64,000 nucleotides of DNA. Origin: an uncultured Chloroflexia bacterium. GTDB taxonomy: Bacteria > Chloroflexota > Limnocylindria > Limnocylindrales > CSP1-4. Position numbers and translations under genes: made by a program. Below the pieces are notes generated by a model. The model was not told the DNA's origin and did no database searches. It saw nothing but the letters and a program-made list of their open reading frames with translations. Shown in pieces: positions 30,910-47,165 of this stretch. The stretch spans positions 56,635-120,634 of the forward strand of contig CAWIFB010000056.1 of NCBI GenBank assembly GCA_963835335.1, in the 5' to 3' direction. How positions within the stretch are numbered: position 1 is the stretch's first letter; each line of letters begins with the position of its first letter.

Positions 30910-32352
30910 ATGCGTGATCTGACCGGCCGTGCCCTCGACACGGCGACCGCCCTGGGCGCGACCTACGCTGACGTGCGCGTCGTGCGACGGATCGAGGAGT
31001 CGATCACCATCAAGTCGGCTCGGGTCGAAGGCGTGTCGTCGGGCGAGACCGAGGGTTTCGGCATTCGGGTCCTGGTCAACGGGGCGTGGGGATTTGCCGC
31101 GAGCCATCACCTGAGCACCGGCGAGGCAGACCGGGTCGCGGCGGACGCGGTCCGGATCGCGAGAGCCAGCGCGACCGCCATCCGGAACCCGGTCCGGCTT
31201 GACGATCGCCCGCCGGCGAACGGCAGCTTCGAGTCCCCGGTGGTCGAGGACCCGTTTGCCGTTCCGCTCGATCAGAAGGTCGAGCTCCTGCTCGCCGCGG
31301 ACAGGGCCATGAACGGCGTCAAGGGCATCACCTTCACCGAGTCCATGTACGCCGCCCAGCGCGAGTCGAAGACGTTCGCCGCATCCGATGGCAGCTACAC
31401 GGAGCAGGTCATCACCCACATCGGCAGCGGCCTCGAGGCCAACGCCATCGCGGACGACGAGCACCAGCGCCGCAGCTACCCGGACAATGGCGGCCTGTGG
31501 GCGTCCGCGGGCTACGAGTTCGTCCGGGCGATGGACCTCGAGGCGAACGCCGAGCGAACCGCCGCCGAGGCGGTCGAGCTGCTGAGCGCGCCGCCGCTAC
31601 CCGCCGGCACGCGCACGATCCTGCTCCATCCCAGCCAGCTGTACATGCAGGTCCACGAGAGCTGCGGCCACCCGACCGAGCTCGACCGGGCGTTCGGCAC
31701 CGAGGCCAGCTACGCCGGCACGAGCTTCCTGACTCCGGACCTTCTCGACGGCTTCCGCTACGGCTCCGATCTGTGCGACATCGTCGCCGACGCCACGGTC
31801 CCCGGCGGCCTGGGCAGCTTCGGGTGGGACGACGAGGGTGTCGTCGCCCAGCAGGTACCGCTGATCAGGGAAGGGATGTTCGTCGGCTATCTCAGCTCCC
31901 GCGAGACGGCACCACGGATCGGACGCCAGTCCGGTGGTGCGATGCGCGCCGACGGCTGGAACCGGATCCCGCTGATCCGGATGACGAACGTCAACCTGCT
32001 GCCCAGGCCCGGCATGAGCTTCGACGACATCATCGCGGACACCGACGACGGGATCATGTTCGAGACCAACCGCAGCTGGTCGATCGACGACCGCCGGCTC
32101 AACTTCCAGTTCGGCACCGAGATCTGCCGGGAGATCAAGGGCGGCAAGCCGGGCCGGCTGTACCGCAACGGCACGTACACCGGGATCACCTACGAGCTGT
32201 GGCGATCGATGGACGCCGTGGGCGACGCAAGCTCGTGGCGGATGTGGGCCACCCCGAACTGCGGCAAGGGCGAGCCGCCGCAGACCGGTCACGTCGGCCA
32301 CGGCGTCTCCGGCGCACGGTTCCGTAACGTGCGGGTCGGGGTCATGGGATGA
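30910..32352 (+). CDS. tldD: TldD metalloprotease
   Basis: GFGIRVLVNGAWGFA, HESCGHPTELDR, DDEG, RMTN, CGKG. Confidence 0.95.
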   Translation: MRDLTGRALDTATALGATYADVRVVRRIEESITIKSARVEGVSSGETEGFGIRVLVNGAWGFAASHHLSTGEADRVAADAVRIARASATAIRNPVRLDDRPPANGSFESPVVEDPFAVPLDQKVELLLAADRAMNGVKGITFTESMYAAQRESKTFAASDGSYTEQVITHIGSGLEANAIADDEHQRRSYPDNGGLWASAGYEFVRAMDLEANAERTAAEAVELLSAPPLPAGTRTILLHPSQLYMQVHESCGHPTELDRAFGTEASYAGTSFLTPDLLDGFRYGSDLCDIVADATVPGGLGSFGWDDEGVVAQQVPLIREGMFVGYLSSRETAPRIGRQSGGAMRADGWNRIPLIRMTNVNLLPRPGMSFDDIIADTDDGIMFETNRSWSIDDRRLNFQFGTEICREIKGGKPGRLYRNGTYTGITYELWRSMDAVGDASSWRMWATPNCGKGEPPQTGHVGHGVSGARFRNVRVGVMG

Positions 32353-33719
32353 GCGACAGGCACGGGATCGGCGGCGATCCGGCCGAGGCGCTGCGGCTCG
32401 CGGAGCTCGTCGTCGACATGTCCTCGAAGGCCGGCGCGACCGAGGCCGAGGCGCTCGTCGCGTCGGGCGAATCCGCGCTCACCCGATTTGCCAATTCGGA
32501 GATCCACCAGAACGTCAGCAGCGACGAGGTGCTGGTCAACCTGCGCTTCGTGAGCGGCCGTCGGGTGGGGGTGGCATCGACGGGACGGACGGACGCCGAG
32601 GGGCTGCGCGCCCTGGTCGAGCGGGCGACGGCCATCGCAGCCAACGTCGCGGAGCTTGACGATTGGGCCGGGCTGCCCGACGGCGGGAGCGTGGCACCGC
32701 TCGCGATCGCCTGGTCGGACGGCACGGCGGGCGCCACGCCGGAGCTTCGCGCCGATGGAGCCCGGGCCGTCATCGCGGCAGCGGACGAGGCCGGCGTCAC
32801 GGCCTACGGATCGTTCTCGACCGACGTCGAGGCGATCGCGGTCGCCAACTCGCACGGGATCCGCGCCGCGGAGCGCCGGACCAGCTCGCAGCTGCTGACG
32901 GTGACGATGGGGCCTGACAACGGCACCGGATACGCGGAGCAGTGCTCGGTCGACGCGACGGTGATCGATGCTGCCGCGATCGGGCGCGAGGCCGCCGAGC
33001 GCGCGAAGGCGAGCACCAACCCCGTGGCGCTGGACCCCGGCGACTATCCGGTGGTCCTCCACCACTACGCGGTCGTCGACCTGCTGGACATGATCGGCTA
33101 CCTGGGGCTCTCGGCCCTCGCCGTCCAGGAGGACCGGTCGTTCTTCGAGGCGGGCAGGCAGGTCGCGTCGAAGCTGGTGACCATCGCGGACGACGGCCGG
33201 GACCCCGCCGGCCTGCCGGCGGGCTTCGATGCCGAGGGCGTGCCCAAGCAGCGACTCGCGCTGCTCGATGCGGGCGCCTGCCGCGACCTGGCCTTCGACC
33301 AGCAGACCGCGGCGCGTGCCGGCCGGTCGTCGACGGGTCATGGGATGCCGGCGCCGAACCCGTACGGCCCGTTCCCCACCAACATGGTCATGGCCGCGGG
33401 TGACGCCACGGATGACGACCTCGTGGGCGGGCTCGAGCGGGGCCTGCTGGTGACCCGGTTCCACTACACCAACCCGGTGTACCCCAAGCGCGTCGTGATC
33501 ACGGGCATGACGCGGGACGGGACATTCCTGGTCGAGGACGGCAAGGTCGTCGGCGCCGTCCGCAACCTGCGGTACACGATGTCGTACCTCGACGCGCTGG
33601 CCAACGTGGAGGCCGTGGGACGCGAGCGCCGGTGCCTGCGCGGCTTCCTGGGCGGGAGTGTCGTGCCCTCGCTCCGGCTGTCGTCGTTCTCGTTCACCGG
33701 CGCCACGGCCGAGGGCTAG
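32349..33719 (+). CDS. pmbA: TldE/PmbA family protein
   Basis: TRFANSEIHQN, FDAEG, STGH, TGMTRDG; no HExxxH; start overlaps the tldD stop. Confidence 0.9.
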   Translation: MSDRHGIGGDPAEALRLAELVVDMSSKAGATEAEALVASGESALTRFANSEIHQNVSSDEVLVNLRFVSGRRVGVASTGRTDAEGLRALVERATAIAANVAELDDWAGLPDGGSVAPLAIAWSDGTAGATPELRADGARAVIAAADEAGVTAYGSFSTDVEAIAVANSHGIRAAERRTSSQLLTVTMGPDNGTGYAEQCSVDATVIDAAAIGREAAERAKASTNPVALDPGDYPVVLHHYAVVDLLDMIGYLGLSALAVQEDRSFFEAGRQVASKLVTIADDGRDPAGLPAGFDAEGVPKQRLALLDAGACRDLAFDQQTAARAGRSSTGHGMPAPNPYGPFPTNMVMAAGDATDDDLVGGLERGLLVTRFHYTNPVYPKRVVITGMTRDGTFLVEDGKVVGAVRNLRYTMSYLDALANVEAVGRERRCLRGFLGGSVVPSLRLSSFSFTGATAEG

Positions 33720-33727
33720 GTCGCCGG

Positions 33728-34021
33728 ATGGGCATCGGAGATGCACGCGCCTCGGATCTCACGATCTTCATCGACACCGACGCCTCGATCACCGTCGACG
33801 TCGGCTCGCGGTTCGTGGCGGTGGGAACCGAGGACCTTGAGCGAATCCTGGATCGCCTCGCCGCGGACGGCGGAACGCTCCGGCTCCTCGGTGCGCCCGA
33901 TCGTGCGGACGACGGGGACGAGCCGCCGGATCGCGAGAGCGACCCCGCCGCGGGTGCCGCGTCACACGTGCTGGCGCTCGCCCACGCGCGCGGGTTGGAG
34001 GTCATCCGCAATGACCGCTGA
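33728..34021 (+). CDS. Small hypothetical protein
   Basis: Short ORF filling the gap between pmbA and the SnoaL-like gene. Confidence 0.5.
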   Translation: MGIGDARASDLTIFIDTDASITVDVGSRFVAVGTEDLERILDRLAADGGTLRLLGAPDRADDGDEPPDRESDPAAGAASHVLALAHARGLEVIRNDR

Positions 34022-34044
34022 GCCGCGCCGCGGTCACGGCTGAG

Positions 34045-34497
34045 ATGCCGGCCGAAGGCAGCATCCGCTCGCGCCTCGCCCGGCGCTTCGATCCCATCGA
34101 GCTGCGGGCGATCAAGCGGCTGTGGATCCGGCACTCGATCGCCGAGGACGCCCGGGACATCGACGGGCTGATCGCGACGCTGGCACCGGACTGCGTCTAC
34201 GAGATGGTGCCCACCGGCCAACGCTGGGAGGGGCACGACGGCGCGCGCGCGTTCTACACCGAGCTGTTCGCCGCGTTCCCGGACAACCGGTTCGGGCTGA
34301 CCGACATCGTGGTCGGACCGCAGGGCGTGTTCGAGGCGGCGCAGCTGACGGGCACCAACCTCGGGCCATGGGCCGGGGTGCCAGCCTCCGGGCTGCCGGT
34401 CAGCCTGGGCGTGTTGATCCTGTTTCCGTGGGATCCCGCCACGGGTCGGTTCCGCGGGGAGCGGATCTGGTTCGATCGAGGATCGCTGAGCACGTAG
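34045..34497 (+). CDS. SnoaL-like / NTF2-fold ester cyclase family protein
   Basis: FYTELFAAFPD, GTNLGPWAGVPASG, ERIWFD. Confidence 0.85.
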   Translation: MPAEGSIRSRLARRFDPIELRAIKRLWIRHSIAEDARDIDGLIATLAPDCVYEMVPTGQRWEGHDGARAFYTELFAAFPDNRFGLTDIVVGPQGVFEAAQLTGTNLGPWAGVPASGLPVSLGVLILFPWDPATGRFRGERIWFDRGSLST

Positions 34498-34521
34498 CTC
34501 CCGGGGCAGTGTCGATCGTCC

Positions 34522-37437
34522 CTACCAGGCGACGAGCTTCCAGATCTCCGGCTCCAGCTCTCCAGGGTTCCCGCCGACCTCGGCGAAGATCGCGACCGCG
34601 CGCTTGAGGTGGGCCATCGACTCGTCGATCCGGCCCACCGCGTGCAGCTGGTCGGCGAGGCTGTTCTCGACGGCTGCCTCGAGGTGGCGCTCGCCTGTCC
34701 GCCGGCATTCGTCGAGGGCGGCCTCGAGCAGTGAGATTGCGGTTACCCGGTCACCGGCAGCTGCCTCGACGAGGGCGAGCGCGTTGCGGGCCGCGATCGC
34801 CGCCCCTGCATCGGGATCGGTGGCCGCCAGGGCGAGGCTCTGCTCCAGGGACGCGCGTGCCGCGTCCAGATCACCGGTCTCGCGCGCGATCAGCCCCAGG
34901 ATCCGATGCGCCGCACCGGCGCCCGGATCATCCCCGGCCGCCGCTGCGAGACCGAGCGCGCGAGAGGCCGCGAGGTGGGCGAGGTCGAGCTCGCCCGCGC
35001 GGTGCGCCACCACCGCACGTTCGGCCAGCGCCCGGACCAGGATCCGGGAGCCGGCGGCCGTCTCCCCGAGCTCGAGCGTCGAGATCGCCGCGTCAAGGTG
35101 ACTGGCCGCGGTTGCGAGGTCGCCCCTGCGGGCGTGCACCCTCCCGAGCCGGAGCTCGACCACCGGGAGCTGGTCGTCCGCGGTCGCCGCGGCGGCGGCC
35201 TCGAGCGCCGCGATGGCACCGGTGTAGTCGCCCAGGGCGGTCCGAACCTCGCCCAGCAGGAGCTGGATCGCGGCCACGTCCGGATGCCCCAGCGCGATCG
35301 CGGTCTCGAGATGCGCAGCCGCCTCGCGATTCGCGAACAGGGCCCGGGCGCGAACCCCGGCCTGGCGGAAGGCCTCCGCCGCCTCCGCCTCCCGACCCGC
35401 CGCTCGTTCGTGGATCGCCACCTGGACCAGTCGAGCGGGGTCGTCGCGGCCGGAGATCTCGACCCTGAGAAGCTCGGCGGTCCGGCGATGGAGCAGCCGT
35501 CGGCGGGCGAGGCTGGTCGCCTCGTAGGCGGCGTCGCGGAGCTTGGCGTGCGCGAAGTCGAAAGCGACCTCCGGCGCCGCCGGAACGTCGCGGACGATGC
35601 CGCGCCGAACCAGCTCCTCGAGCGCCGTCACGGTCTCGTCCTCGGAGCGTCCGCTCGTCCCCCGCACGAGGGGCAGGTCGAACGAGCGGCCGATGACGGC
35701 GGCCGCCGACAGCACCTGTCCGGCCGTCTCGCTCACCGACGCCAGCCGCTCCCGGAGGAGGGTGCGGACGCTCCGCGCCGGTCCCTCGATCAAGCCGGTC
35801 CCCGTCGCAAGCGCCTCGACCACGTACAGGGGCAGGCCCTCGCTCTCCTCGAGCAGCGTGTCGACGGCCATCGGGGACTGCCCGACGACGGATGCCGCCG
35901 CCACGAGCTGCTCGACGTCCTCGCGTCCGAGCCGGCGTAGTGCGACGGCCGTCGTGTCCGGGAGGGCCTCGATCGTGTCCACGAAGATGGAGCCAAGCTC
36001 GTCGAGATCCTCGGGTCGCCAGGTGAGGAGGAGCAGGACCGGGCGACCCGTCAGCCGGCGACCGAGCCAGACCAGCGCCTCCCGCGATGCATCGTCCGCC
36101 CACTGGAGGTCCTCCACCGTGATGAGTCCCGGCACCGGTCCGGCCACGAGCACACTCAGGGTGTTCGCGACGGCTTCCAGGAGGCGAACCCGTGCTGCCG
36201 ATCCGTCGTCGTTCCCGGCGCGGACCTCCCGGACCGGCCGGCGACGCGACAGACCGGGGGGCATGGGGACGAGGCGCTCCAGCTCCGCGAGGGTGGCGTG
36301 CGGCAGGTGCTGGAGGCGATCGACGGCGTCCGGACGAGCGAACCCGACGCGCAGCAGCTCCACGACGAGCCCGTAGGCGATGCCGGCCTCCGACGCGAAC
36401 GACCGCGCGACGAGCGCCGTGCCGCCCGCGGCATGCACGCTGTCGCGGATGCTCTCGGCGAGCCGCGACTTCCCGATTCCCGCTTCACCGGTGACGTAGG
36501 CGACCCGCCCGTCGATCCCCGCGTCCCGGCACGCATCCAGGAGGGAACGCAGGTCGCGGTCGCGCCCGACCAGCGGCAGCCGGGCGAGGGCGGGCGGTTT
36601 GCCGTCGACCGTTCCGCTCGCCGCAGCCTCGACAGAAACCCGGTCGTCCGGCGATGTCGAGGCCGCAGCTCGATCGTCGCGGACCGCCTCGTACAGCTCG
36701 GTCGTCTCGGCCAACGGCACGACGCCGAGCTCCCGCTCCAGCACGGCGACACACGAGCGGTACTGGCGGATCGCGCCCGCCCGGTCGCCCGAGCGCGCAA
36801 GGAGCCGCATCAGGCGCCGCTGCGCAGGCTCGTCGAGCGGATCGAGATCCACGCGGCGCGCTGCGGCGGCGACGGCGGCGGGGATATCCCCTTCCGCTTC
36901 CGCGGTCACTGCGAGCCGGTCGAGCACGCCGGCAACGGCTCGATCCGCCGCGACCGCTCGGGTCGCCCGCCAGTCATCGAACTCCGGGCTGTCACGCAAC
37001 GAGAACCCGGCCAGGAACGGACCCCTGGCGGCCGCGGCCGCGTCCCGCAACGCGCGCCCGGACGCGTCGAGGCCTGCGGCCTCCACGGCCACCAGGTCGA
37101 CCCATGTGCCGGTCGTGTCGAAGGTGACCGTGGACCGGTCGACCCGAATCCAACGGTCCCCGAGCGCCGCCCGGAGCACGGACAGCGTCCGCCGCAGCGC
37201 GCCGCGCGCCGATTCGTCGTCCGACTCGGGCCACAGGAGGGCAGCCAGCTCCTCGCGAGCGAACGGCCGGCCCTCGATGGCGAGGAGGGCGAGGATCGCC
37301 GAGGCCTTGCGCGTGTCCACGGCGATCGGCTCGCCGTCCACGCGAACGTCGAGCGGCCCGAGCACGCGGATCTCGAGACCGGAGGCCCGGGCGGCAGGCG
37401 GGACGGGCGAGGCAGACGCAGGCACCGGATGGGACAT
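34522..37437 (-). CDS. SARP/AfsR-like regulator: winged helix, BTAD, STAND AAA ATPase, TPR
   Basis: IRVLGP..REELAALLWP; GPFLAGF..EFDDW; DPLDE..LMRLL (BTAD); LVGRD; GEAGIGKS; EDLQWAD; FAHAKLR; C-terminal TPRs. Confidence 0.92.
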   Translation of the reverse strand: MSHPVPASASPVPPAARASGLEIRVLGPLDVRVDGEPIAVDTRKASAILALLAIEGRPFAREELAALLWPESDDESARGALRRTLSVLRAALGDRWIRVDRSTVTFDTTGTWVDLVAVEAAGLDASGRALRDAAAAARGPFLAGFSLRDSPEFDDWRATRAVAADRAVAGVLDRLAVTAEAEGDIPAAVAAAARRVDLDPLDEPAQRRLMRLLARSGDRAGAIRQYRSCVAVLERELGVVPLAETTELYEAVRDDRAAASTSPDDRVSVEAAASGTVDGKPPALARLPLVGRDRDLRSLLDACRDAGIDGRVAYVTGEAGIGKSRLAESIRDSVHAAGGTALVARSFASEAGIAYGLVVELLRVGFARPDAVDRLQHLPHATLAELERLVPMPPGLSRRRPVREVRAGNDDGSAARVRLLEAVANTLSVLVAGPVPGLITVEDLQWADDASREALVWLGRRLTGRPVLLLLTWRPEDLDELGSIFVDTIEALPDTTAVALRRLGREDVEQLVAAASVVGQSPMAVDTLLEESEGLPLYVVEALATGTGLIEGPARSVRTLLRERLASVSETAGQVLSAAAVIGRSFDLPLVRGTSGRSEDETVTALEELVRRGIVRDVPAAPEVAFDFAHAKLRDAAYEATSLARRRLLHRRTAELLRVEISGRDDPARLVQVAIHERAAGREAEAAEAFRQAGVRARALFANREAAAHLETAIALGHPDVAAIQLLLGEVRTALGDYTGAIAALEAAAAATADDQLPVVELRLGRVHARRGDLATAASHLDAAISTLELGETAAGSRILVRALAERAVVAHRAGELDLAHLAASRALGLAAAAGDDPGAGAAHRILGLIARETGDLDAARASLEQSLALAATDPDAGAAIAARNALALVEAAAGDRVTAISLLEAALDECRRTGERHLEAAVENSLADQLHAVGRIDESMAHLKRAVAIFAEVGGNPGELEPEIWKLVAW

Positions 37438-37441
37438 TTCG

Positions 37442-37488
37442 CGTAACGGTAACGCGTTGGCGCAGGATCTCGTAACGTTCTCCGAACG
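37442..37488. promoter_or_regulatory. GTAACG repeat cluster / putative operator A
   Basis: GTAACG at 37443, 37449 and 37472 in the divergent intergenic region; 19-mer at 37470 shared with 41261. Confidence 0.6.
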
Positions 37489-37511
37489 GCAGCGTCCCAC
37501 CATCCGAGGCC

Positions 37512-38759
37512 ATGACCGCGTCCAGAGTCGCGCACCAAGCACCCCGCCTGGCCCCCGCACGCTCGACAGCGCGGCGGCTCGCCCACCTGCTCAGCGGGCT
37601 GGCACTGGCACTCGACGTGCTGGCCGTGCTGCTGCTCGTGCCGCAGGCCGGCACCGGGGTGTTCGAGCGACTCGACGGCAACACGCTGGGCGGCTACGTG
37701 CTCGGAGCTACGTTCCCCGTGGTCGGGTGGCTGATCGCGACCCGCAGACCTGGCAACGCGATCGGCTGGGTGTTCATTGTGATCGGCCTGTCGCAGGCGC
37801 TCGACACGTTCGCCGGGCAGTACGGCGTGGTCGGTCTCGTCACGACGCCCGGATCCCTGCCGGCAGCCGACCTGCTTGCGTGGGTCGCGGTCTGGGCCTG
37901 GGCGCCGGGCTTCACGCTCCTCCTCACGTACTCCGTGCTCCTTTTCCCGGACGGCCACCTGCCGTCGTCCCGGTGGCGCCCGGTCGCGTGGCTGGCTGGA
38001 TGTGCGCTCGTGCTGCTCGTCGTGCCGGTGGCGATCCTCGCGTGGGGCAGCTCGGGACGCGACCTGGTGGGGACGGGTCCCGTCGAATCGACAGACCCGG
38101 CGGTGACCATGATCCTGGGGTTGCAGTTCGTCGGCCTCATCCTGCTGATGATCAGTGGCCTGGGCTCGATCGCCAGCCTTGTCGTCCGCTTCCGGCGCTC
38201 GACGGGAGCCGAGCGCGCCCAGCTCAAATGGTTCGTGGCTGCCGGTGCCATCGAGGTCGTGAGCCTCAGTGCCTCGGCGTTCGTGACGCTGCCCGGGCTG
38301 CTGCTCAACGCGCTCCTGGCGGTGACGGTGGCGCCTCTGCTGCCCATCGCGGCCACGGTCGCGATCCTCCGCTACCACCTGTATGACATCGATCGCATCG
38401 TGAGCCGGACGGTCGCATGGGGCGCCGTCACGCTGGTCCTCGTCCTCGTGTTCGCCGGGGCCGTCGTCGGCCTCGACGACCTGCTCGCCGGGGTGACCCA
38501 GGGCCAGACCCTCGCGGTCGCGGCGTCGACGCTGTTGGCGTTCGCGCTGTTCCAGCCGATCCGGGGCCGGGTCCAGGCGGCGGTCGACCATCGGTTCGAC
38601 CGCGCGCGGTACGACGGCCAGCGGATCGTCGATGCCTTCGCCGAGGGGCTGCGCGGGCAGGTGGACCTGGCCCAGATCAACGACGGCGTGCTGGCCGCCG
38701 TGACGGGCACCGTCCGGCCCCGCACCGGGGCGGTGTGGCTCCGGGAGCGCCGACGATGA
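37512..38759 (+). CDS. Multi-TM sensor-like membrane protein 1 (ends in a partial GAF)
   Basis: NAIGW, LLFPDGHLPSSRWR, ERAQLKW, ILRYHLYDID, AASTL..FQP, DHRFDRARYD..AVWLR*. Confidence 0.85.
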   Translation: MTASRVAHQAPRLAPARSTARRLAHLLSGLALALDVLAVLLLVPQAGTGVFERLDGNTLGGYVLGATFPVVGWLIATRRPGNAIGWVFIVIGLSQALDTFAGQYGVVGLVTTPGSLPAADLLAWVAVWAWAPGFTLLLTYSVLLFPDGHLPSSRWRPVAWLAGCALVLLVVPVAILAWGSSGRDLVGTGPVESTDPAVTMILGLQFVGLILLMISGLGSIASLVVRFRRSTGAERAQLKWFVAAGAIEVVSLSASAFVTLPGLLLNALLAVTVAPLLPIAATVAILRYHLYDIDRIVSRTVAWGAVTLVLVLVFAGAVVGLDDLLAGVTQGQTLAVAASTLLAFALFQPIRGRVQAAVDHRFDRARYDGQRIVDAFAEGLRGQVDLAQINDGVLAAVTGTVRPRTGAVWLRERRR

Positions 38760-39985
38760 CGACGGCCACGGAGCGCAGGCGCAACGGCCAGGTGGAGGCC
38801 ACGCTTGGCCGCGCCGCGACGGCCGGGCTGTGGGCGCTGATCCTGGTCCTCGCCGCAGGTGGTCTGGCCAACATCCTGCTGCCGCAGGGCGCGACGCAGA
38901 ACAATGACGCCATTGCCTTCATCCTGTCTGCAGCGATCACGCTTCTGTTCGGTGGCATCGGCGCGCTCGTCGTCAGCCGGCAGCCGTCCAACGCAGTCGG
39001 CTGGCTGCTCTGGGTCATCGGCGCCCTCATCGGCCTGAGCATGGCCGCGACGGCGTATGCCATCTGGAGCCTGACCGCGTTCGATGCGCAGCTGCCCGGG
39101 AGCGTCATCGCCGGCTGGATCACCCAGTGGGCGTTCAGCCCGACGCTCGTCATCGCGCTCCTGTTCCTGCCGCTCCTCTTTCCCGATGGCCGGCTGCCGT
39201 CGCGGCGCTGGCGGTGGGCGCTCGCGTTCGCCGCCCTGACCACCGTCGCCGCCGGCCTGCCCGATATGCTCCAGCCCGGCCCGCTCGGACCGACAGGGAT
39301 CCCGAACCCCACGGGCTGGTCGGGAGACCCGGCGCTGCTCGATGCGCTCCGGGCCTTCAACTCGATCAGCCCGATCCTCGCGTTCCCGGTCGTCGTCGCC
39401 TCCGCCGTCGTCCGCTACCGTCGCGGGACCCCGGTCGAGCGCCAGCAGCTCAAGTGGTTCGGCGCAACGGCCGTCCTCGCGGTGATCTCGCTGTCGGTGG
39501 CCGTGCTCGCCCCCGAGCCGTACGGGGTCCTGGGGTTCTTCGGCGCGATGATCGCCGTCGCCCTGCTGCCGGTCTCGATCGGGATCGCGATCCTCCGCTA
39601 TCGCCTGTACGCGATCGACCGCCTGGTCAGCCGCTCCATCTCGTGGGCGATCGTCAGCCTCAGCCTCGCCGCCGTGTTCGCCGGTGCGGTGATCTCGCTG
39701 CAGGCGCTGCTGGCCGGCGTGACTCAGGGTCAGACCTTTGCCGTCGCGGCCTCGACGCTTGCCGCGTTTGCGCTGTTCCAGCCCCTCCGTCGGCGCGTCC
39801 AGGCAGCCGTGGACCGGCGGTTCGACCGGGCCAGGTACGACGGGCAGCGGCTCGTCGGCGCGTTTGCCGAGGACCTGCGAGGCGAGATCGACCTCGCCGA
39901 GATCCGTGACGAGATGCTCGCGACGGTGGCGACGGCCGTTCGCCCCGGGCACGGAGCGGTCTGGCTCCGAGGCGACCGGGCATGA
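38756..39985 (+). CDS. Multi-TM sensor-like membrane protein 2 (paralog)
   Basis: Same motif series; ATG overlaps the previous stop. Confidence 0.85.
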   Translation: MTTATERRRNGQVEATLGRAATAGLWALILVLAAGGLANILLPQGATQNNDAIAFILSAAITLLFGGIGALVVSRQPSNAVGWLLWVIGALIGLSMAATAYAIWSLTAFDAQLPGSVIAGWITQWAFSPTLVIALLFLPLLFPDGRLPSRRWRWALAFAALTTVAAGLPDMLQPGPLGPTGIPNPTGWSGDPALLDALRAFNSISPILAFPVVVASAVVRYRRGTPVERQQLKWFGATAVLAVISLSVAVLAPEPYGVLGFFGAMIAVALLPVSIGIAILRYRLYAIDRLVSRSISWAIVSLSLAAVFAGAVISLQALLAGVTQGQTFAVAASTLAAFALFQPLRRRVQAAVDRRFDRARYDGQRLVGAFAEDLRGEIDLAEIRDEMLATVATAVRPGHGAVWLRGDRA

Positions 39986-40001
39986 CCGGTCTCGTGCGCC
40001 G

Positions 40002-41204
40002 ATGACGGCCGCGCGGCGCCGCGTGAGGCTGCAGGTCGCGGCCATCGTCGCCATGGCAACGGTCGCGCTCGTGTTCGTGGCTGTCGGCGTGCCGCTGGGT
40101 GTCGAGACCCTGGACCGGTACGGTCCTGCCGGCCCCGTGTTCCTCCTGATCTTCCCCGCGATCGTCCTGTCGCTGACGTTCGTGGGCGGCTTCGTGGCAT
40201 TTCGCGTCGGCAACCCGGTGGGCTGGCTGCTCGAGCTGTCCGGGCTGGCGTCCGCGATCGGGATCTTCGGCGGCACGTACGTGAACTACGACCACGACCT
40301 GCAGGCGGGGTTCCCCTTCGTGGTGCCGATCGCCTGGCTGTCGAGCTGGATGTTCCTGCCCGCGATCGGGATGCTCCTCGTGTACCTCCCCCTGCTGTTC
40401 CCGACCGGTCGCTTCCTGGGGCCGCGCTGGCGCGCCTTCGGCATGGTTGGCCTGCTCGGCCTCGCCGGGAGCGTTGCGGCAGGGCTCATGCCCGGCCCGC
40501 TGTCGAGCGCACCCTGGATTGCGAACCCGCTCGGCGTCCCTGGCGCCACCGACGTCCTCGCCGGGATCACCACCATCTCCAACCTCGCCACTCCGGTCTT
40601 CTTCGGCGGTGCGGTGATCAGCGTGTTCGTGCGCTATCGGCGGGCGGGAATCGTCGAGCGTCATCAGCTCAAGTGGTTCGGCCTCGTGGCCGGGGTCGCG
40701 GTGGTGACGTTCATCATCTCGATCCCCAACAACGGGCCGGTCTCGGACGCCGCATGGGCGCTGGGACTCGCGATGCTGCCGCTGCTGCCGATCGCCATCG
40801 GGATCGCGATCCTCCGCTACCGCCTGTGGGACATCGACCGGATCATCAGCCGCACGCTTGGCTGGGGCGTCGTGACCGCCGTGCTGGTGACGGTGTTCGC
40901 CCTGGTGGTGGTCGCCTTCGAGGACGCCCTGGCGGGCATCACGCAGGGCCAGACGCTCGCCGTGGCCGGCTCCACGCTGCTCGCCGCATCGCTGTTCCAG
41001 CCGCTCCGGAGACGGGTCCAGGCGGCGGTCGACCGCCGATTCGATCGGGCCCGGTACGACGCCGAGCACACCATCCAGGGCATGGGCTCCCGGCTCCGGG
41101 ACGGGATGGACGAGCCGCGGGTCCGGGCGGCCATCCTCGCCACGGCGACCGAGGCGGTGCGGCCCGCAAGCGCGGCCGTCTGGCTCCGGCAGCGGGCCCG
41201 GTGA
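40002..41204 (+). CDS. Multi-TM sensor-like membrane protein 3 (paralog)
   Basis: Same motif series, ending RPASAAVWLRQRAR*. Confidence 0.85.
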   Translation: MTAARRRVRLQVAAIVAMATVALVFVAVGVPLGVETLDRYGPAGPVFLLIFPAIVLSLTFVGGFVAFRVGNPVGWLLELSGLASAIGIFGGTYVNYDHDLQAGFPFVVPIAWLSSWMFLPAIGMLLVYLPLLFPTGRFLGPRWRAFGMVGLLGLAGSVAAGLMPGPLSSAPWIANPLGVPGATDVLAGITTISNLATPVFFGGAVISVFVRYRRAGIVERHQLKWFGLVAGVAVVTFIISIPNNGPVSDAAWALGLAMLPLLPIAIGIAILRYRLWDIDRIISRTLGWGVVTAVLVTVFALVVVAFEDALAGITQGQTLAVAGSTLLAASLFQPLRRRVQAAVDRRFDRARYDAEHTIQGMGSRLRDGMDEPRVRAAILATATEAVRPASAAVWLRQRAR

Positions 41205-41227
41205 CCATCCCGGCCGCGCCGCGGCTC

Positions 41228-41279
41228 CGTAACGTCCCGAATTCCCTCATAGCCGAGGTTTCGTAACGATGTCCGGACG
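41228..41279 (+). promoter_or_regulatory. CGTAACG repeats / putative operator B
   Basis: CGTAACG at 41228 and 41262; TCGTAACGATGTCCGGACG matches 37470-37488 at 16/19 positions. Confidence 0.6.
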
Positions 41280-41300
41280 CCCACCCACGAGGATCCGCCC

Positions 41301-42953
41301 ATGAGCGTACTCACCGGCACATTCCGCCGCCTCAAGGGCCGCCAGTCCGCCGGCGCGGAGGCCGCGCCCGCGACGATCCCGACGGCCGCGGCAGAGGTCG
41401 AGCAACCCGGCGTCGCGATCGACATCCCGGAGACCGACCCGCTGTTCGCCTATCTCCAGTCGGCTCCCGGGCCCGTGGACCTCTCCCGCCTCGAGCTCGC
41501 CTCGGCGGCCCTGACCCAGCTCCGCGAGGCCGGCGTGGCCCTGGTGGTTCCCCTCGTGACCCAGGGCGAGCTGATCGGTACGTTGAACCTCGGCCCCCGC
41601 CTGTCCGAGCAGGACTACTCGTCGGACGATCGCCGCCTCCTGGCCACGCTCGCCGCACAGGCCGCGCCGGCGATCCGCGTCGCGCAGCTCGTCCGCGAGC
41701 AGGCAGTGGAGGCCGCCGAGCGTGAGCGCTACCAGCAGGAGCTCAAGGTCGCACAGCTGATCCAGCAGCAGTTCCTGCCACGCGAGCTGCCCAGGCTGCC
41801 CGAGTGGCAGATCGCCGCGTACTACGGCCCGGCGCGCGTGGTGGGCGGCGACTTCTACGACTTCATCGACCTCGGGGGTGGCCGGATCGGCGTCGTCGTG
41901 GGTGACGTGACCGACAAGGGCGTTCCGGCCGCGCTGGTCATGGCCCGCACGCACTCGATCCTGCGCGCCGAGGCGCCGCGGCTGATCGAGCCCGGCAAGG
42001 TGCTCGCGCGCGCCAACGAGCTGCTGGTGCCCGAGATGCCGGCCCGCATGTTCGTGACCTGCCTGTACGGCGTCCTGGAGCCGGCAACCGGCCGTTTCGT
42101 GTTTGCCAACGCCGGGCACAACCTGCCCTACGTGCGGACGCCGCACGGCGTCATCGAGCTTCGGGCGACCGGCCTGCCGCTCGGGCTCATGCCGGGCATC
42201 GAGTACGAGGAGACCGAGGGCTCGGTGGGCCAGGGCGACGCGATGCTGCTCTACTCGGACGGCGTCGTGGAGCAGCACGGACCGGGCCGCGAGATGTACG
42301 GCTTCCCCCGCCTGCGCACCGCCATGGAGGGCTCCGATGCCGGGAGCGAGCTGCTGGACCGGTTGCTCGAGGAGCTGAACGCGTTCCAGGGCACAGAGGT
42401 CGAGCAGGAGGACGACATCACGCTCGTCACCCTCCGGCGATCGACCGGCGTGACCGAGGGTGCCTGGTCCGAGGATCGTCCCGAGGTCGCGCTCACGCGC
42501 GACGACGAACCCGCCGAGACCCTCGCGGCCGAGCCACTGCTTGTGTTCACGATCGAGGGCGCCATCGGCAACGAGCGGGCGGCGATGCAGCGCGTTGCCG
42601 AGATCGTCGAGCCGTTGGGGCTGGAGCCCGCGCGGCTGGAGCGCCTCAAGACCGCCGTCGCCGAGACAGTGATGAACGCGATCGAGTACGGCTCCCAGGG
42701 CGACCCGGAGGTGCCGGTCGACGTCCGGGTGGACGCCGACGACGCGACGATCCGCGTCCGCGTCACGGACCGGGCCCTGTCCGGACCGGTGCCCGATGTC
42801 GAGATGCCGGACCTCGACGCCAAGCTCGACGGCCGCCAGAAGCCGCGGGGCTGGGGCCTGTTCCTGATCCGCCACATGGTCGACGGCATGGATGTGCACG
42901 TCGCCGATGGCCTGCAGACCGTCACCCTCACCCTCGCCCGGGACGGGCGCTGA
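41301..42953 (+). CDS. Partial GAF + SpoIIE/PP2C phosphatase (RsbU-like) + HATPase (RsbW-like) fusion
   Basis: VVPLVTQGELIGTLNLG..LLATLAAQAA; VGGDFYD, GDVTDKG, NAGH, YSDG, DDIT; ETVMNAIEYG, RGWGLFLI. Confidence 0.92.
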   Translation: MSVLTGTFRRLKGRQSAGAEAAPATIPTAAAEVEQPGVAIDIPETDPLFAYLQSAPGPVDLSRLELASAALTQLREAGVALVVPLVTQGELIGTLNLGPRLSEQDYSSDDRRLLATLAAQAAPAIRVAQLVREQAVEAAERERYQQELKVAQLIQQQFLPRELPRLPEWQIAAYYGPARVVGGDFYDFIDLGGGRIGVVVGDVTDKGVPAALVMARTHSILRAEAPRLIEPGKVLARANELLVPEMPARMFVTCLYGVLEPATGRFVFANAGHNLPYVRTPHGVIELRATGLPLGLMPGIEYEETEGSVGQGDAMLLYSDGVVEQHGPGREMYGFPRLRTAMEGSDAGSELLDRLLEELNAFQGTEVEQEDDITLVTLRRSTGVTEGAWSEDRPEVALTRDDEPAETLAAEPLLVFTIEGAIGNERAAMQRVAEIVEPLGLEPARLERLKTAVAETVMNAIEYGSQGDPEVPVDVRVDADDATIRVRVTDRALSGPVPDVEMPDLDAKLDGRQKPRGWGLFLIRHMVDGMDVHVADGLQTVTLTLARDGR

Positions 42954-42968
42954 CCGATGGAGGCAGCC

Positions 42969-43331
42969 ATGAACGAGCAACGGCTCGACATCGAGGTCGT
43001 CAGCTTGACCGCCGGCGAGGCTCGGCTGGCGATGCGCGGCGACGTGGACATCGCGGCTGACCAGGCGCTCGCCACCGCCTACGCGACGGCGGCGGCCGCT
43101 GGCGCCACGCGCGTGGTCCTCGACTTCACGAGCGTCGACTACATCAACTCGACCGGCATCGCGCTGATCGTCCGGCTGCTCGCCGAGGCCCGCCGCGATC
43201 ACCGCGAGGTCATCGCCGAGGGGCTCACCGACCACTACCGGGAGATCTTCCGGATCACCCGGCTGTCCGACTACCTCACGATCGCCGATGACATGTCGGC
43301 GGCCAGCGTCCCAGAGGAGGGCAATCGATGA
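42969..43331 (+). CDS. STAS anti-anti-sigma factor (RsbV-like) 1
   Basis: GDVD, VLDFTSVDYINSTGI, IFRITRL. Confidence 0.9.
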   Translation: MNEQRLDIEVVSLTAGEARLAMRGDVDIAADQALATAYATAAAAGATRVVLDFTSVDYINSTGIALIVRLLAEARRDHREVIAEGLTDHYREIFRITRLSDYLTIADDMSAASVPEEGNR

Positions 43332-43672
43332 CCGATACGACCGTCGACGTCAGCCACCACGGCGATGCCGCGATCCTCCACGTGCACGGCGAGATCACCG
43401 GGGGCAGCGAGCCCGCACTGATGGACGCCTATGGCCTGGCCGGCGACGCGCGCGCCATCGTGCTCGACTTCGGCGATCTCGAGTACATGAACAGCGGTGG
43501 GATCGGGCTGCTGGTGACGCTCCTCGTGCGCACGCAGCGGGCCGGCCAGAAGCTGCTGGCCGTCGGCCTGACGGAGCACTACCACCAGATCCTCGCGCTC
43601 ACCCGCCTCGACGAGGCGATCTCCATCCACGACGACGAGTCGGCGGCGCTGGCCGCAGCCGGCACGGCCTGA
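43328..43672 (+). CDS. STAS anti-anti-sigma factor (RsbV-like) 2
   Basis: GEIT, LDFGDLEYMNSGGI, ILALTRL. Confidence 0.9.
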   Translation: MTDTTVDVSHHGDAAILHVHGEITGGSEPALMDAYGLAGDARAIVLDFGDLEYMNSGGIGLLVTLLVRTQRAGQKLLAVGLTEHYHQILALTRLDEAISIHDDESAALAAAGTA

Positions 43673-43686
43673 AACGGAGCGTTCCG

Positions 43687-44427
43687 ATGACCACCGAGCC
43701 TCGCACCCCCCGCGACAAGGAATCCTGGGCCCGCCCCGTGGACCGGCTGTCCACGACCGCCAAGACCGGCGGCATGGACACCGTGACCGGCAAGCGCGTC
43801 TCCGGCCCCATCCAGGGCTTTGGCCAGATGTGGCAGAAGACGTTCAAGGTCCGCCTGAGCGGCGTCGATCTCGACCCCGAGGCCGTGGTCGCGCACTGGA
43901 AGGCCGGCTTCCCCACCTTCTGGCCCAAGGGCGCGGCGTTCTACGCCCCCCTGGCGGGGATCGCCCCGGGCGAGGTCGCCCTTCTCGAGGTCGCACCGGT
44001 CCCGGGCTCACCGGTCAAGATGTCGACCGGGGTCATGGTCATCTACGCTGACCGCGAGTCATTCACGTTCATGACGCCCGAGGGTCACGCGCTGTCCGCA
44101 TGGATCACCTTCTCCGCCTTCCGCGATGGCGCTACCACGGTTGCCCAGGCACAGGCGCTGGAGCGGACGAGCGATCCGTTCATCGAGCTCAGCTACATCT
44201 TCGGCGCCAACCGCGCGAACGACCGGTTCTGGGAGAAGACGCTCGAGAACCTCGCCGCATCCCTGGGTGTCGGCGCGCCGGTCATCGAGGCCGAGAAGAT
44301 CTGCGTGGACAGGCGCCGCCAGTGGCGGTACGTGCGCAACCTTCGCCACAGCGCGGCCGTGAACATGGCCGTGGGCACGGTCACCGCGCCGGTCCGCTGG
44401 GTGCGGCGTCGCCGGGTCGCGAGCTGA
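43687..44427 (+). CDS. Conserved hypothetical protein (possibly SRPBCC/DUF1990-like)
   Basis: GGAG upstream; QGFGQMWQKT, FTFMTPEGH..WITF; co-oriented with the STAS genes. Confidence 0.7.
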   Translation: MTTEPRTPRDKESWARPVDRLSTTAKTGGMDTVTGKRVSGPIQGFGQMWQKTFKVRLSGVDLDPEAVVAHWKAGFPTFWPKGAAFYAPLAGIAPGEVALLEVAPVPGSPVKMSTGVMVIYADRESFTFMTPEGHALSAWITFSAFRDGATTVAQAQALERTSDPFIELSYIFGANRANDRFWEKTLENLAASLGVGAPVIEAEKICVDRRRQWRYVRNLRHSAAVNMAVGTVTAPVRWVRRRRVAS

Positions 44428-44455
44428 TCGCAACGCGTCCCTCCCGGAGCCCGCG

Positions 44456-45895
44456 GTGACGCCCCGGCGTCGCCGCGGCGACGGGCTGGATGCCATCGTC
44501 GTCGGCGCAGGTCCTAACGGCCTTGCCGCAGCCATCGAGCTCGCACGTGCCGGGCGATCGGTCCGGATCTACGAGGCCGCCGGGGAGGTGGGTGGCGGGT
44601 CGCGATCAGCGGAGCTGACCCTGCCGGGGTTCGTCCACGACGTGTGCTCGGCGGTCCATCCGCTGGGCGTGGCATCACCCTTCTTCGCGTCGCTCGACCT
44701 GGCCCGCTACGGGCTGGAATGGGTTCAACCGGAGGCACCGCTCGCGCACGCCCTGGCTCCCGGCCGGAGCGTCATCCTGGAACGCGACCTGGAGGTCATG
44801 CGCGAGGCGCTCGGCCGGGATGGCGATGCCTGGGCCCGGCTGTTCGGGCCGCTCGTCCGCGAGTGGGAGCGGCTCGCGCCGGCGCTGCTCGGGCCCGTCG
44901 TCCGGCCGCCTCGCCACCCGCTGCTCCTGGCGCGGTTCGGCCTGCCCGCGGTCCTGCCCGCCACCTCGCTGGCGAGGATCGCATTCCGCGAGCCGGCCGC
45001 CCGGGCGCTGTTCGCGGGCATGGCCGGCCACTCGATGCTCCGCCTCGGCCGCCCGCTCTCCGCGTCGTTCGGGCTGGTGCTGGGGATGCTCGCCCACGCG
45101 GTCGGCTGGCCGGTGGCGCGCGGCGGGAGCGGCCGGATCGCCGCCGCGCTCGAGGCCGAGGCTCGCGCGCTGGGCGTCGAGATCGTCACCGGGCATCGGG
45201 TCGACGCCCTTGGCGCACTGCCGGCGGCGCGGGCCGTGGTCCTGGACCTGACGCCACGCCAGGTCGTCGCGCTTGCCGGAGACCGGCTGCCGACCCGGTA
45301 CCGGGGCCAGCTGGAGCGGTACCGCTACGGACCGGGGGTGTTCAAGATGGACTGGGCGCTGGACGGCCCGATCCCGTGGGCCGATCCGGCGACGGCGCGA
45401 GCGGGCACCGTGCACCTGGGTGGGACGCTGGCCGAGGTCGCGGCCTCCGAGGACGCCGTCGGTCGCGGACACCCGGCCGATCGCCCGCTCGTCCTCGTTG
45501 TCCAGCCGACCATCGCGGACCCGTCGCGCGCTCCGGAGGGCAAGCACGTCGCGTGGGCCTACTGCCACGTGCCCAACGGCTCGTCCGTGGACATGACAGC
45601 CGCCATCGAGAGCCAGGTCGAGCGCTTCGCGCCCGGGTTCCGCGACCTCGTGCTCGCCCGGAGCGTGAGGGACGCGGCGGCCATGGAGGCGTACGACGCG
45701 AACTACATCGGCGGTGACATCAACGGCGGGATCCAGGACATCCGCCAGCTGCTGTTCCGGCCGGTCCTCCGCTGGAACCCGTACACCACGCCGGATCCGG
45801 GCCTGTTCCTGTGCTCGTCTTCGACACCGCCGGGCGGGGGGGTCCACGGGATGAGCGGCTGGCATGCGGCACGCGAGGTCATCCGCCGGACCTGA
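44456..45895 (+). CDS. Phytoene dehydrogenase-like FAD oxidoreductase
   Basis: VVGAGPNGL, HDVCSAVHP, NYIGGDI, STPPGGGVHGMSG. Confidence 0.9.
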   Translation: MTPRRRRGDGLDAIVVGAGPNGLAAAIELARAGRSVRIYEAAGEVGGGSRSAELTLPGFVHDVCSAVHPLGVASPFFASLDLARYGLEWVQPEAPLAHALAPGRSVILERDLEVMREALGRDGDAWARLFGPLVREWERLAPALLGPVVRPPRHPLLLARFGLPAVLPATSLARIAFREPAARALFAGMAGHSMLRLGRPLSASFGLVLGMLAHAVGWPVARGGSGRIAAALEAEARALGVEIVTGHRVDALGALPAARAVVLDLTPRQVVALAGDRLPTRYRGQLERYRYGPGVFKMDWALDGPIPWADPATARAGTVHLGGTLAEVAASEDAVGRGHPADRPLVLVVQPTIADPSRAPEGKHVAWAYCHVPNGSSVDMTAAIESQVERFAPGFRDLVLARSVRDAAAMEAYDANYIGGDINGGIQDIRQLLFRPVLRWNPYTTPDPGLFLCSSSTPPGGGVHGMSGWHAAREVIRRT

Positions 45896-45962
45896 CGACT
45901 CCCGGGGTCGCGGCACGGGCCGCGTTAGGGGGTGCCGCGGTGGCAGACTGCGCTGGTCCACG

Positions 45963-47165
45963 ATGTCGACCCGCAGCCTCTCCCTGAACGAGGTCCGCAT
46001 CCTCGGCCGCCAGGTCACAGCCGAGGCGATGGCGCGAGCGCTGCTCGCGATCGGTGCGGCCGTGTTCTTCTGGCTGCTCGGCCCCGGACAGGGCGACAAC
46101 GACCCGTTCAACCCCCTCGCCGCCGCGCTGCTCCATGGTCGCCTCTCGATCCCGGACCCGATGCCCTGGCTCGAGAGCGTCCCGGCGCCCGATGGTGGCT
46201 GGTACGTCCCGCTCGCGCCGGGTCCCGCGATCGTCCTGCTCCCGGTCGTCGCGCTGGTCGGGCCGCACGTCGTGGACACGAGCCTGTTGTCGGCGATCTC
46301 GGCCGCCGTGGCGGTCTGGCTGGCGTGGGGCCTGGTCCGGCAGATCGGCGGGACCGCGCGGCAGGCGGCCTGGCTCACAATCGGGCTCGCGTTCGGGTCC
46401 GAGCTGACCTGGGTGGCGACCTCGGGCGGTCCGCACAACGTCGAGCACATGCTCGCGATGGCATGCCTGATGGGCAGCCTTCGCCTCGCGATCGCGGGTC
46501 GAAACCCTGCGGCGGCCGGGCTGCTGTGGGCATTCGCCGTCACCTGCCGCGTCCCGGTCGGGCTCGCGCTGCCGCTGTTCGCGTGGCTGTATCGACGGCA
46601 GATCGCGCGGTTCGTGCTGGCCGCAGCACCCATCGGAGCCCTGCTCGTGCTGTACAACACCGCCCGGTTCGGCAACCCGCTGGACTTCGGGCTGGCCCGG
46701 ATCATGGGCGGCGACCCACCCACGTCGGTCCTTGACGAGCCCTGGTACGACCACGGGATCATCGCGATCGACTACCTGCCGCGGGGGCTGCACACGATGC
46801 TCCTCCGGACGTTCGACATCGTGTCCGACCCGCCGTGGTTCCGCCCCAACTGGACGGGCGCATCCGTGCTGCTCACGATGCCGGTGCTGGCATGGCTCCA
46901 TCGGGCGCGGGCGAGGGTGCTCATCGTCCCGTGGCTGGTGGCGGGTCTCGTCCTCGTCCCGGACCTGCTCCACGGCGCTCCGGGCTTCGCGCAGTTCGGG
47001 TACCGGTTCATCTGCGACGTGCTGCCGATCCTGTGGTGGCTGCTGGCCTGGGTCGCGGTCAATCGCGGGCTGACGCTGGGCATGCGCGCGGCGATCGTGG
47101 CCGGGATCGCGGTCAACATGTACGCGCTGTGGACGGTGTGGGCGCTCGGCTTCGTGGGGTACTGA
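45963..47165 (+). CDS. Polytopic membrane protein, GT-C glycosyltransferase-like
   Basis: About 10 TM segments; YNTARFGNPLDFG, QFGYRF. Confidence 0.6.
   Translation: MSTRSLSLNEVRILGRQVTAEAMARALLAIGAAVFFWLLGPGQGDNDPFNPLAAALLHGRLSIPDPMPWLESVPAPDGGWYVPLAPGPAIVLLPVVALVGPHVVDTSLLSAISAAVAVWLAWGLVRQIGGTARQAAWLTIGLAFGSELTWVATSGGPHNVEHMLAMACLMGSLRLAIAGRNPAAAGLLWAFAVTCRVPVGLALPLFAWLYRRQIARFVLAAAPIGALLVLYNTARFGNPLDFGLARIMGGDPPTSVLDEPWYDHGIIAIDYLPRGLHTMLLRTFDIVSDPPWFRPNWTGASVLLTMPVLAWLHRARARVLIVPWLVAGLVLVPDLLHGAPGFAQFGYRFICDVLPILWWLLAWVAVNRGLTLGMRAAIVAGIAVNMYALWTVWALGFVGY

Follow-up and report, generated by a model that had tools for sequence, protein, structure and literature searches.

A candidate GAF domain split between paralogous membrane sensors and a phosphatase/kinase protein in an uncultured Chloroflexia bacterium

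In bacteria, a sensor is usually connected to its output within a single chain, by phosphotransfer or by whole-domain docking. How might membrane proteins that end without any catalytic domain pass on a signal? The question is raised by a run of six + strand genes in a 64,000-nucleotide stretch of DNA (the window) from an uncultured Chloroflexia bacterium (assembly GCA_963835335.1, contig CAWIFB010000056.1, positions 56,635 to 120,634). Three of the genes encode paralogous membrane sensors, S1 (37512–38759, 415 aa), S2 (38756–39985, 409 aa) and S3 (40002–41204, 400 aa); the fourth encodes OUT (41301–42953, 550 aa), which combines a partial GAF domain with a PP2C/SpoIIE domain and an RsbW-like ATPase, and the last two encode STAS proteins. 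Comparison with longer relatives indicates that the sensor tails and the N-terminal region of OUT are very probably two halves of one GAF domain. The window has a GC content of 70–74% throughout and belongs to an incomplete bin (3.06 Mb, 58 contigs, 61% complete); the nearest named homologs of its proteins are assigned to Candidatus Limnocylindrales, and Chloroflexia or Limnocylindria are the labels given to related loci.

Sensor tails and the GAF region of OUT

The three sensors are multi-helix membrane proteins. The ATG of S2 overlaps the stop codon of S1 as ATGA, and S3 starts at an ATG. Identity to S1 is 46% for S2 and 37% for S3, all three share the motif RFDRARYD, and each C-terminus reads VRP..(G/A)AVWLR followed by only four to five residues. 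Pfam searches of S1–S3 gave nothing above threshold and no catalytic domain; the only matches, both below threshold, were to Abhydrolase_9_N (18.7 bits, cut-off 27) and QCR10. This agrees with an earlier reading made from the letters of the window alone (the sequence-only reading), which had described three paralogs that end alike without a catalytic domain. An AlphaFold2 (AF2) model of S2 (92-row alignment; mean predicted local distance difference test score, pLDDT, 85.9) has about ten long helices. At its C-terminus, helix 327–374 leaves the membrane and is followed by helix 380–394 and a coil (395–409). Two tail helices had been proposed to open the GAF domain; the second of these (380–394) can be kept as the GAF helix, whereas the first is the cytoplasmic end of the long helix 327–374.

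The tail, which ends in VWLR, is assigned by homology to helix 1 and strand 1 of a GAF domain. It spans residues 379–405 of S2 (39890–39970), on which its limits were fixed, and by alignment residues 385–411 of S1 (38664–38744) and 370–396 of S3 (41109–41189), all on the + strand. P397 and W403 of the S2 tail are invariant in 92 aligned family members. Mean pairwise identity is 0.44 in the tail, 0.48 in the conserved C-terminal half of the sensor and 0.33 in the N-terminal half, and the greater variability of the latter is as expected if sensing resides there.

The SpoIIE domain of OUT (PF07228; residues 193–380, 41877–42440) covers profile positions 2–191 of 192 with E 1.5e-50 and 172.3 bits (cut-off 25), and its ATPase/kinase domain (HATPase_c_2, PF13581; residues 426–544, 42576–42932) scores 72.5 bits with E 4.1e-20 (cut-off 27.4), which bears out the earlier description of a partial GAF domain followed by PP2C and HATPase domains. 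The kinase domain is not an equivalog of RsbW or SpoIIAB, as its NCBIfam scores lie far below the cut-offs. Upstream of these domains, only the later part of each GAF profile is matched: residues 30–125 align with positions 38–127 of 129 in GAF_3, residues 32–125 with positions 57–133 of 133 in GAF (PF01590) and residues 73–125 with positions 87–135 of 136 in GAF_2, so that OUT alone does not span a whole GAF profile (PF01590, PF13185 or PF13492). Searched by sequence against solved GAF chains, OUT 1–150 gave E-values of 0.011 or worse (C-terminal parts of the CodY, DevS and DosT GAF domains), in line with a partial GAF domain though short of significance.

The AF2 model of OUT (83-row alignment, mean pLDDT 85.7) is in keeping with the profile matches. 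Residues 1–40 are coil (pLDDT 45–66), and residues 41–158 form helix 47–54, strand 59–60, helix 69–76, strands 81–87 and 90–97, and a long exit helix (108–158). The half-GAF is modelled with pLDDT 82–96 per ten-residue block, at least 91 for residues 41–120. A GAF fold usually has five to six strands in a sheet flanked by helices, and OUT alone has only three strands before the exit helix and no complete central β sheet; the expectation that its N-terminus is not a complete GAF domain by itself was thus upheld. Residues 38–158 (41412–41774) are best described as a GAF domain without helix 1 and strand 1, plus the exit helix. They are preceded by residues 1–37 (41301–41411), modelled as disordered, in which a short, basic and moderately conserved start peptide (M-T/S-x-L-T-x-x-F-R-R, with F8, R9 and R10 in at least half of 83 aligned relatives) leads into a variable Ala/Pro-rich linker. 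The start peptide (residues 1–15, 41301–41345) may serve in membrane binding or docking. Conservation is much higher in OUT than in the sensors, the 120 best OUT clusters being 79–94% identical and mostly 547–566 aa long.

The link between the two gene products comes from longer relatives whose single chain joins the same membrane module to a GAF domain and then an output. In P0149 (922 aa), residues 14–426 align with S1 10–415 and residues 444–545 with OUT 41–143 (57% identity), and a Pfam GAF match at 396–527, covering profile positions 1–132 of 133, spans the junction between the sensor and OUT parts; P0194 is alike. A search with OUT 1–150 returned 15 cluster representatives in which the match lies deep inside the protein, and 14 of these carry S2 homology upstream. 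Among ten further single-chain representatives scanned, seven match PF01590 from position 1–3 to position 130–133, and in those seven the GAF match starts 25–30 residues before the S2-tail homology ends. P0469 and P0472 (membrane module, GAF, SpoIIE and HATPase_c_2) are the exact fused equivalent of a sensor plus OUT. In the single chains, the VWL strand is followed by a hydrophilic linker of about 10 to 60 residues or more and then by D(I)APxDPL...GELIG; this linker is long and variable, so the gene cut falls in such a loop. Single-chain homologs in which the VWL strand leads into DPL...GELIG had been anticipated, and they exist, with the variable linker in between. Sub-threshold NCBIfam matches to PrsK (TIGR02916) are in the same register, with S1 282–413 on model positions 209–347 and OUT 74–130 on 405–462; at 16–20 bits against a cut-off of 300, these are a lead and not a sign of membership. 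Matches of a single-chain profile to whole solved GAF chains, likewise not significant, lean in the same direction. The tail and OUT therefore correspond, by way of the single-chain relatives, to consecutive parts of one GAF domain, as the sequence-only reading had supposed.

The membrane module itself resembles little that is named. Foldseek found no match in the PDB at E up to 0.001; the best matches were G-protein-coupled receptors (TM-score 0.15–0.47), which we took to reflect a generic helical bundle, and all 30 nearest ESM Atlas clusters are unnamed ('hypothetical'). Beyond the three sensors of the window, the same genome holds a fourth tail-bearing paralog (L001) on another contig, giving four tail-bearing sensors found in this incomplete genome. 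The open reading frames (ORFs) chosen beside L001 gave no Pfam matches and may not be real genes in such GC-rich DNA. A fifth paralog, also on another contig (contig 28; L002, 3524–5068, − strand), lacks the tail; its membrane module (S1 residues 52–360) is joined to an adenylate/guanylate cyclase domain (PF00211, E 1.2e-6), which fits the membrane module as an input device. The earlier count of three sensors is thus correct for the window and too low for the genome. Elsewhere, proteins of about 780–1010 aa without Pfam domains contain two or three sensor modules, all tail-bearing, within one frame (P0121–P0137, P0143, P0148, P0217 and P0223; locus L066, 3380–5812); these are either tandem fusions or merged gene calls. 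On the OUT side, giant proteins of 1,500–3,950 aa (P0366, P0379, P0406, P0415, P0447 and others) contain 6–17 stretches that match OUT residues ~75–145 and seem to consist of GAF-like units in long tandem arrays.

Conservation and co-occurrence of the split form

A search for sensor homologs of near-equal length scored 7,379 at E up to 0.001 among 8,000 candidates. The RF..R motif is present in 119 of the 120 best of these, and 113 of the 119 end 50–64 residues after it. Scanning of species-representative genomes gave 79 related loci in Chloroflexota, Actinomycetota and two bins labelled Acidobacteriota, with 264 sensor copies in total (median 3 and maximum 8 per locus; at least two copies in 53 loci). 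Nearly all complete copies (239 of 244) end no more than 25 residues past the end point seen in the window. Several genomes of the second phylum (G526, G422, G464, G303 and others) gave 39–49 sensor candidates at first look, of which six per genome were scored, and sensor copy numbers may reach tens per genome.

These boundaries bear on a trivial explanation, namely that a single membrane-GAF-PP2C gene has been broken by assembly or sequencing errors. The bin is fragmented and 61% complete, S3 and OUT lie in one frame, and some database 'fusions' (P0146 and the second junction of P0129) were discarded as apparent run-ons caused by frameshifts. None of these served as evidence for a fused ancestor, nor did two further candidates that could not be verified: P0147, where sensor and OUT are fused in frame with the OUT start peptide kept (3.5-kb contig), and P0216, in which OUT precedes the sensor and SpoIIE is truncated. 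The 96-nucleotide spacer between S3 and OUT (41205–41300, + strand), although in frame with both genes, contains two stop codons, and a GAGGA ribosome-binding site lies 9 nucleotides upstream of the OUT ATG, beyond which the open frame offers no other start codon. Together with the conserved OUT start peptide, these features led us to reject joining of S3 and OUT by read-through or frameshifting. Since 79 independent loci show the same boundaries, as do hundreds of database proteins (547–555 aa, 79–94% identity), we consider a broken gene scarcely conceivable.

The truncated sensors had been expected to be linked to half-GAF genes in other genomes, and this is seen both in adjacency and in co-occurrence. 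In 20 of the 79 loci the last sensor is followed within 1 kb by an OUT-like half-GAF, and in six the half-GAF is located elsewhere in the locus; in 24 loci less than 1.5 kb of sequence follows the array, and in 29 at least 1.5 kb is available downstream without OUT. Genome-wide searches for 15 of those 29 loci (14 genomes) found an OUT-like match in 13 of the 14 genomes, in 12 cases within a short frame (214–621 aa) and in one only within a 949-aa frame. In the window's phylum (301 genomes), sensor matches were obtained in 47 genomes and OUT matches in 21; sensors occur in 18 of the 21 OUT genomes versus 29 of the 280 others, and in 13 of those 18 a sensor and OUT lie within 6 kb of each other. 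A single OUT match is found in 20 of the 21. Among the matches listed (seven others are not included, and genomes G142, G208 and G240 are unclassed), a stand-alone sensor with a tail is present in 17 OUT genomes, with one further partial case, versus two genomes without OUT, and OUT is absent from all 19 genomes that show only long fused forms (660–963-aa frames). Four of these long forms were fetched: two are membrane-GAF-HisKA_3-HATPase_c proteins by Pfam, and the other two (L082 and L085) have no Pfam match and align over their full length with membrane-GAF-histidine-kinase proteins.

The pattern recurs in a second phylum, and in both the usual ratio is many sensors to each OUT gene. Among 301 genomes centred on a Rubrobacteraceae bin, sensors are present in all 50 OUT genomes versus 37 of the 251 others (87 of 301 in total), although related genomes are not independent in this count and six of the OUT genomes had already been reached through sensor loci (G301, G302, G303, G305, G306 and G308), leaving 44 of 44 without them. 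The counts of 13 of 14, 50 of 50, 87 of 301 and the 19 genomes with only long forms rest partly on unpublished genomes; those in the tallies are G272, G173, G309, G314, G402, G396, G485, G362, G550, G332, G434, G537 and G462.

Such co-occurrence is relevant to the possibility that the tails are remnants of an ancient gene fission, with sensors now independent of OUT and adjacency due to ancestry. The 29 loci without OUT in the fetched flanks, the dispersed sensors of the one-contig genome G165 and four genomes with sensors in which no OUT was found would fit such a history. A relic would not be expected to behave as the tail does, being about as conserved as the conserved membrane half and having an invariant Pro and Trp; nor does ancestry account for co-occurrence in the absence of linkage (13 of 14 'orphan' genomes; 50 of 50 and 18 of 21 OUT genomes) or for the lack of OUT in genomes with fused forms only. 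We therefore regard fission leftovers as improbable.

Proposed reassembly in trans and its alternatives

A coupling mechanism is proposed in which the tail of a sensor completes the GAF domain of OUT. In each sensor, the N-terminal half varies and the C-terminal half is conserved; the last membrane helix runs into the cytoplasm through RFDRARYD, and after it come a short helix (GAF helix 1), a strand (GAF strand 1, P-x5-W-L-R) and the stop. Helix and strand would insert into the incomplete sheet of OUT and rebuild the GAF domain at the membrane. In GAF domains the first strand sits inside the sheet, adjoining the last strand; the sensor strand would accordingly lie between OUT 90–97 and OUT 38–42, with the sensor helix packed on the exit helix. 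Movement of the membrane bundle could then be passed through the rebuilt GAF domain and exit helix 108–158 to the PP2C domain; PP2C domains are known to be controlled through a linker helix. The rebuilt GAF domain would set the balance of phosphatase and kinase activity and so shift the phosphorylation of the two STAS proteins, and several sensors would share or compete for one OUT.

Complex prediction was carried out with OUT 1–150 and S2 343–409, each with its own alignment. The pair scored 0.52 (runs of 0.52, 0.52 and 0.50) compared to 0.01 for the best of three controls (unrelated partners, 0.00–0.01), with at least 87% contact agreement between runs and a partner pLDDT of at least 61. Of 80 solved complexes, 58 reach the mark that it passed, as do two of 110 mismatched pairs. 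The interface foreseen in the sequence-only reading is accordingly predicted, albeit in the weak band of passing scores, and lends weak support to pairing.

Several observations from these analyses weigh against the proposal. The passing band at 0.60 or under contains seven of the 80 solved complexes plus both passing mismatches. Halves of a split domain may also pass through the model's memory of single-chain GAF folds, in which case the score would reflect likeness and not binding, and the prediction returned no contacts against which the placement of the tail strand beside OUT 90–97 could be checked. The tail alone (about 27 residues) has no Pfam GAF match in S1, S2 or S3 at E up to 0.1, so its assignment as helix 1 and strand 1 depends on the relatives; a profile of 16 single-chain relatives, in turn, had no significant match to solved full-length GAF chains (4mcw_A, E 0.05; 3trc_A, E 0.13). 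Tail identity between paralogs within a locus (0.39–0.68) is similar to that between loci (0.40–0.66) at matched core identity; there is no clear excess within loci and thus no sign of co-adaptation to a shared partner. Stand-alone sensors occur with no OUT found in G216, G052 (84% complete), G312 and G524; the OUT-like piece of G310 lies only inside a 949-aa frame, and in G165 OUT lies more than 500 kb from every listed sensor. On the supporting side, split and single-chain forms are intermingled in a tree built from the half-GAF plus PP2C part (30 rows), with five to six split/fused changes required and at least two to three of them forced by well-supported branches; against this, contig ends may have truncated some of the genes entered as 'split'. 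Repeated changes of this kind would suggest that both states are functionally equivalent.

Sensors and OUT might also cooperate without rebuilding a GAF domain, through some other contact such as the basic N-terminal peptide or the membrane surface, with the half-GAF standing alone or OUT forming a domain-swapped dimer. This explanation would account for the moderately conserved basic peptide ahead of a variable linker, for the confident modelling of the half-GAF by itself (residues 41–120), for a weak complex score and for tails that show no within-genome co-adaptation. It leaves unexplained why, in thousands of sensors, the chain retains precisely helix 1 and strand 1 before it stops, why just these elements are missing from OUT and why single-chain relatives join them within one GAF match; moreover, unrelated partners scored next to nothing in complex prediction. 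We judge cooperation without a rebuilt domain to be rather unlikely. Reassembly in trans is, in our assessment, a reasonably likely coupling mechanism. Whether different sensors use one OUT interchangeably is finely balanced. We tentatively put forward a system of plug-in receptors, in which dozens of different sensors per genome carrying a ~27-residue 'key' (GAF helix 1 and strand 1) might complete the GAF 'lock' of a single OUT, as a possibility that falls slightly short of an even call.

Gene neighbourhood, known systems and significance

Immediately downstream of OUT, on the + strand, lie the genes for STAS protein 1 (42957–43331; STAS_2, E 6.2e-12; STAS, E 1.5e-10), which is of the anti-sigma-factor-antagonist type, and STAS protein 2 (43328–43672; STAS, E 8.9e-13). 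STAS genes resembling these are present in 24 of the 79 related loci, as a downstream pair wherever an OUT-like gene is in view. An ORF after the pair (43700–44427, + strand) recurs after the STAS genes of L013, L018 and L069 with 52–63% identity; the longer ORF 43288–44427 had no Pfam match. Divergent from the sensor array, a SARP-like regulator is encoded on the − strand (34522–37434), with AAA_16 (E 8.6e-19), BTAD (E 1.7e-16) and TPR_12 (E 6.1e-13) matches; its start at about 37434 is unsettled, as the ORF is open to 37560. A counterpart of this ~970-aa protein is found on the opposite strand beside the arrays of 28 of the 79 loci (L003, L007, L008, L013 and 24 more) at 35–61% identity, and it may be a downstream target or a regulator of the operon. 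Other neighbours (32349–33719, 34045–34497 and 44456–45895) are a PmbA/TldD-type metallopeptidase, a SnoaL-like protein and an FAD-dependent oxidoreductase. A scan of 37300–43900 for promoters and terminators returned no promoter-like site and a single terminator-like site, inside OUT, versus 1.3 expected.

The co-encoding of a PP2C phosphatase, an RsbW-like kinase and adjacent STAS genes is that of RsbU/RsbW/RsbV-type partner switching. The closest solved chain is Rv1364c of M. tuberculosis, a fused phosphatase-kinase (3ke6): OUT 163–492 matches 3ke6_A 30–342 with E 2.4e-16, and anti-sigma F factor chains match the OUT kinase domain at E about 5e-5. Rv1364c takes its input from a PAS domain of its own chain, and in Bacillus the release of RsbT from the stressosome activates RsbU. 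In contrast to both, the input in the window would come by completion of a split GAF domain, and no sigma-factor gene is seen in the cluster; Pfam gave no sigma-factor family match among ten window proteins (32349–47165), and the genome was not searched for one.

Closer in architecture are the single-chain membrane-sensor-GAF-SpoIIE proteins, which share the membrane module, an RF..R.RYD linker, the GAF domain and PP2C with the window and which in P0469 and P0472 add the RsbW-like ATPase; forms of ~915 aa with an added PAS domain (P0194 and P0207) are named 'SpoIIE family protein phosphatase [Rubrobacter sp.]' at source. Unlike these, the window has a cut in the loop after GAF strand 1, an array of sensors, and an OUT with its own start and basic peptide. 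Membrane-GAF-HisKA_3-HATPase_c kinases (P0214, P0229 and P0232; L083 and L084) have a module and tail 29–38% identical to S2 followed by a complete GAF domain, and differ from the window in being single chains with a histidine-kinase output. HisKA_7TM (PF16927) is the nearest named ESM Atlas cluster to the sensor (score 0.83) and matches P0047 over the last third of the model (E 9.8e-7, 29.3 bits, cut-off 28.6), with weak matches in some sensor relatives; S1–S3 themselves have no match at E up to 0.1 and are not assigned to this family. PrsK, an XrtA/PEP-CTERM histidine kinase, resembles the window in that S1 and OUT hit successive parts of one model, below threshold. Full-text literature searches, with supplementary files outside their scope, returned no natural split GAF domain and nothing on this sensor family. 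As far as those searches reach, the individual parts, namely a GAF domain, PP2C/RsbW/STAS partner switching and an input module of 7TM-like type, belong to known kinds, and the wiring does not.

If the proposal is correct, it would add a fourth wiring principle to the three named at the outset, whereby a sensory domain divided at a loop is reconstituted from the products of two genes, with many donors per acceptor. It would also explain a very large unnamed membrane protein family (more than 7,000 homologs in one search) of soil Chloroflexota and Actinomycetota, and it would provide an evolution-tested split site for modular synthetic receptors. The system makes many-to-one signal integration in partner-switching networks testable. 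Should the sensors indeed be plug-in receptors, the cell would integrate or switch signals by which sensor occupies OUT, and inputs would be added in evolution by sensor duplication.

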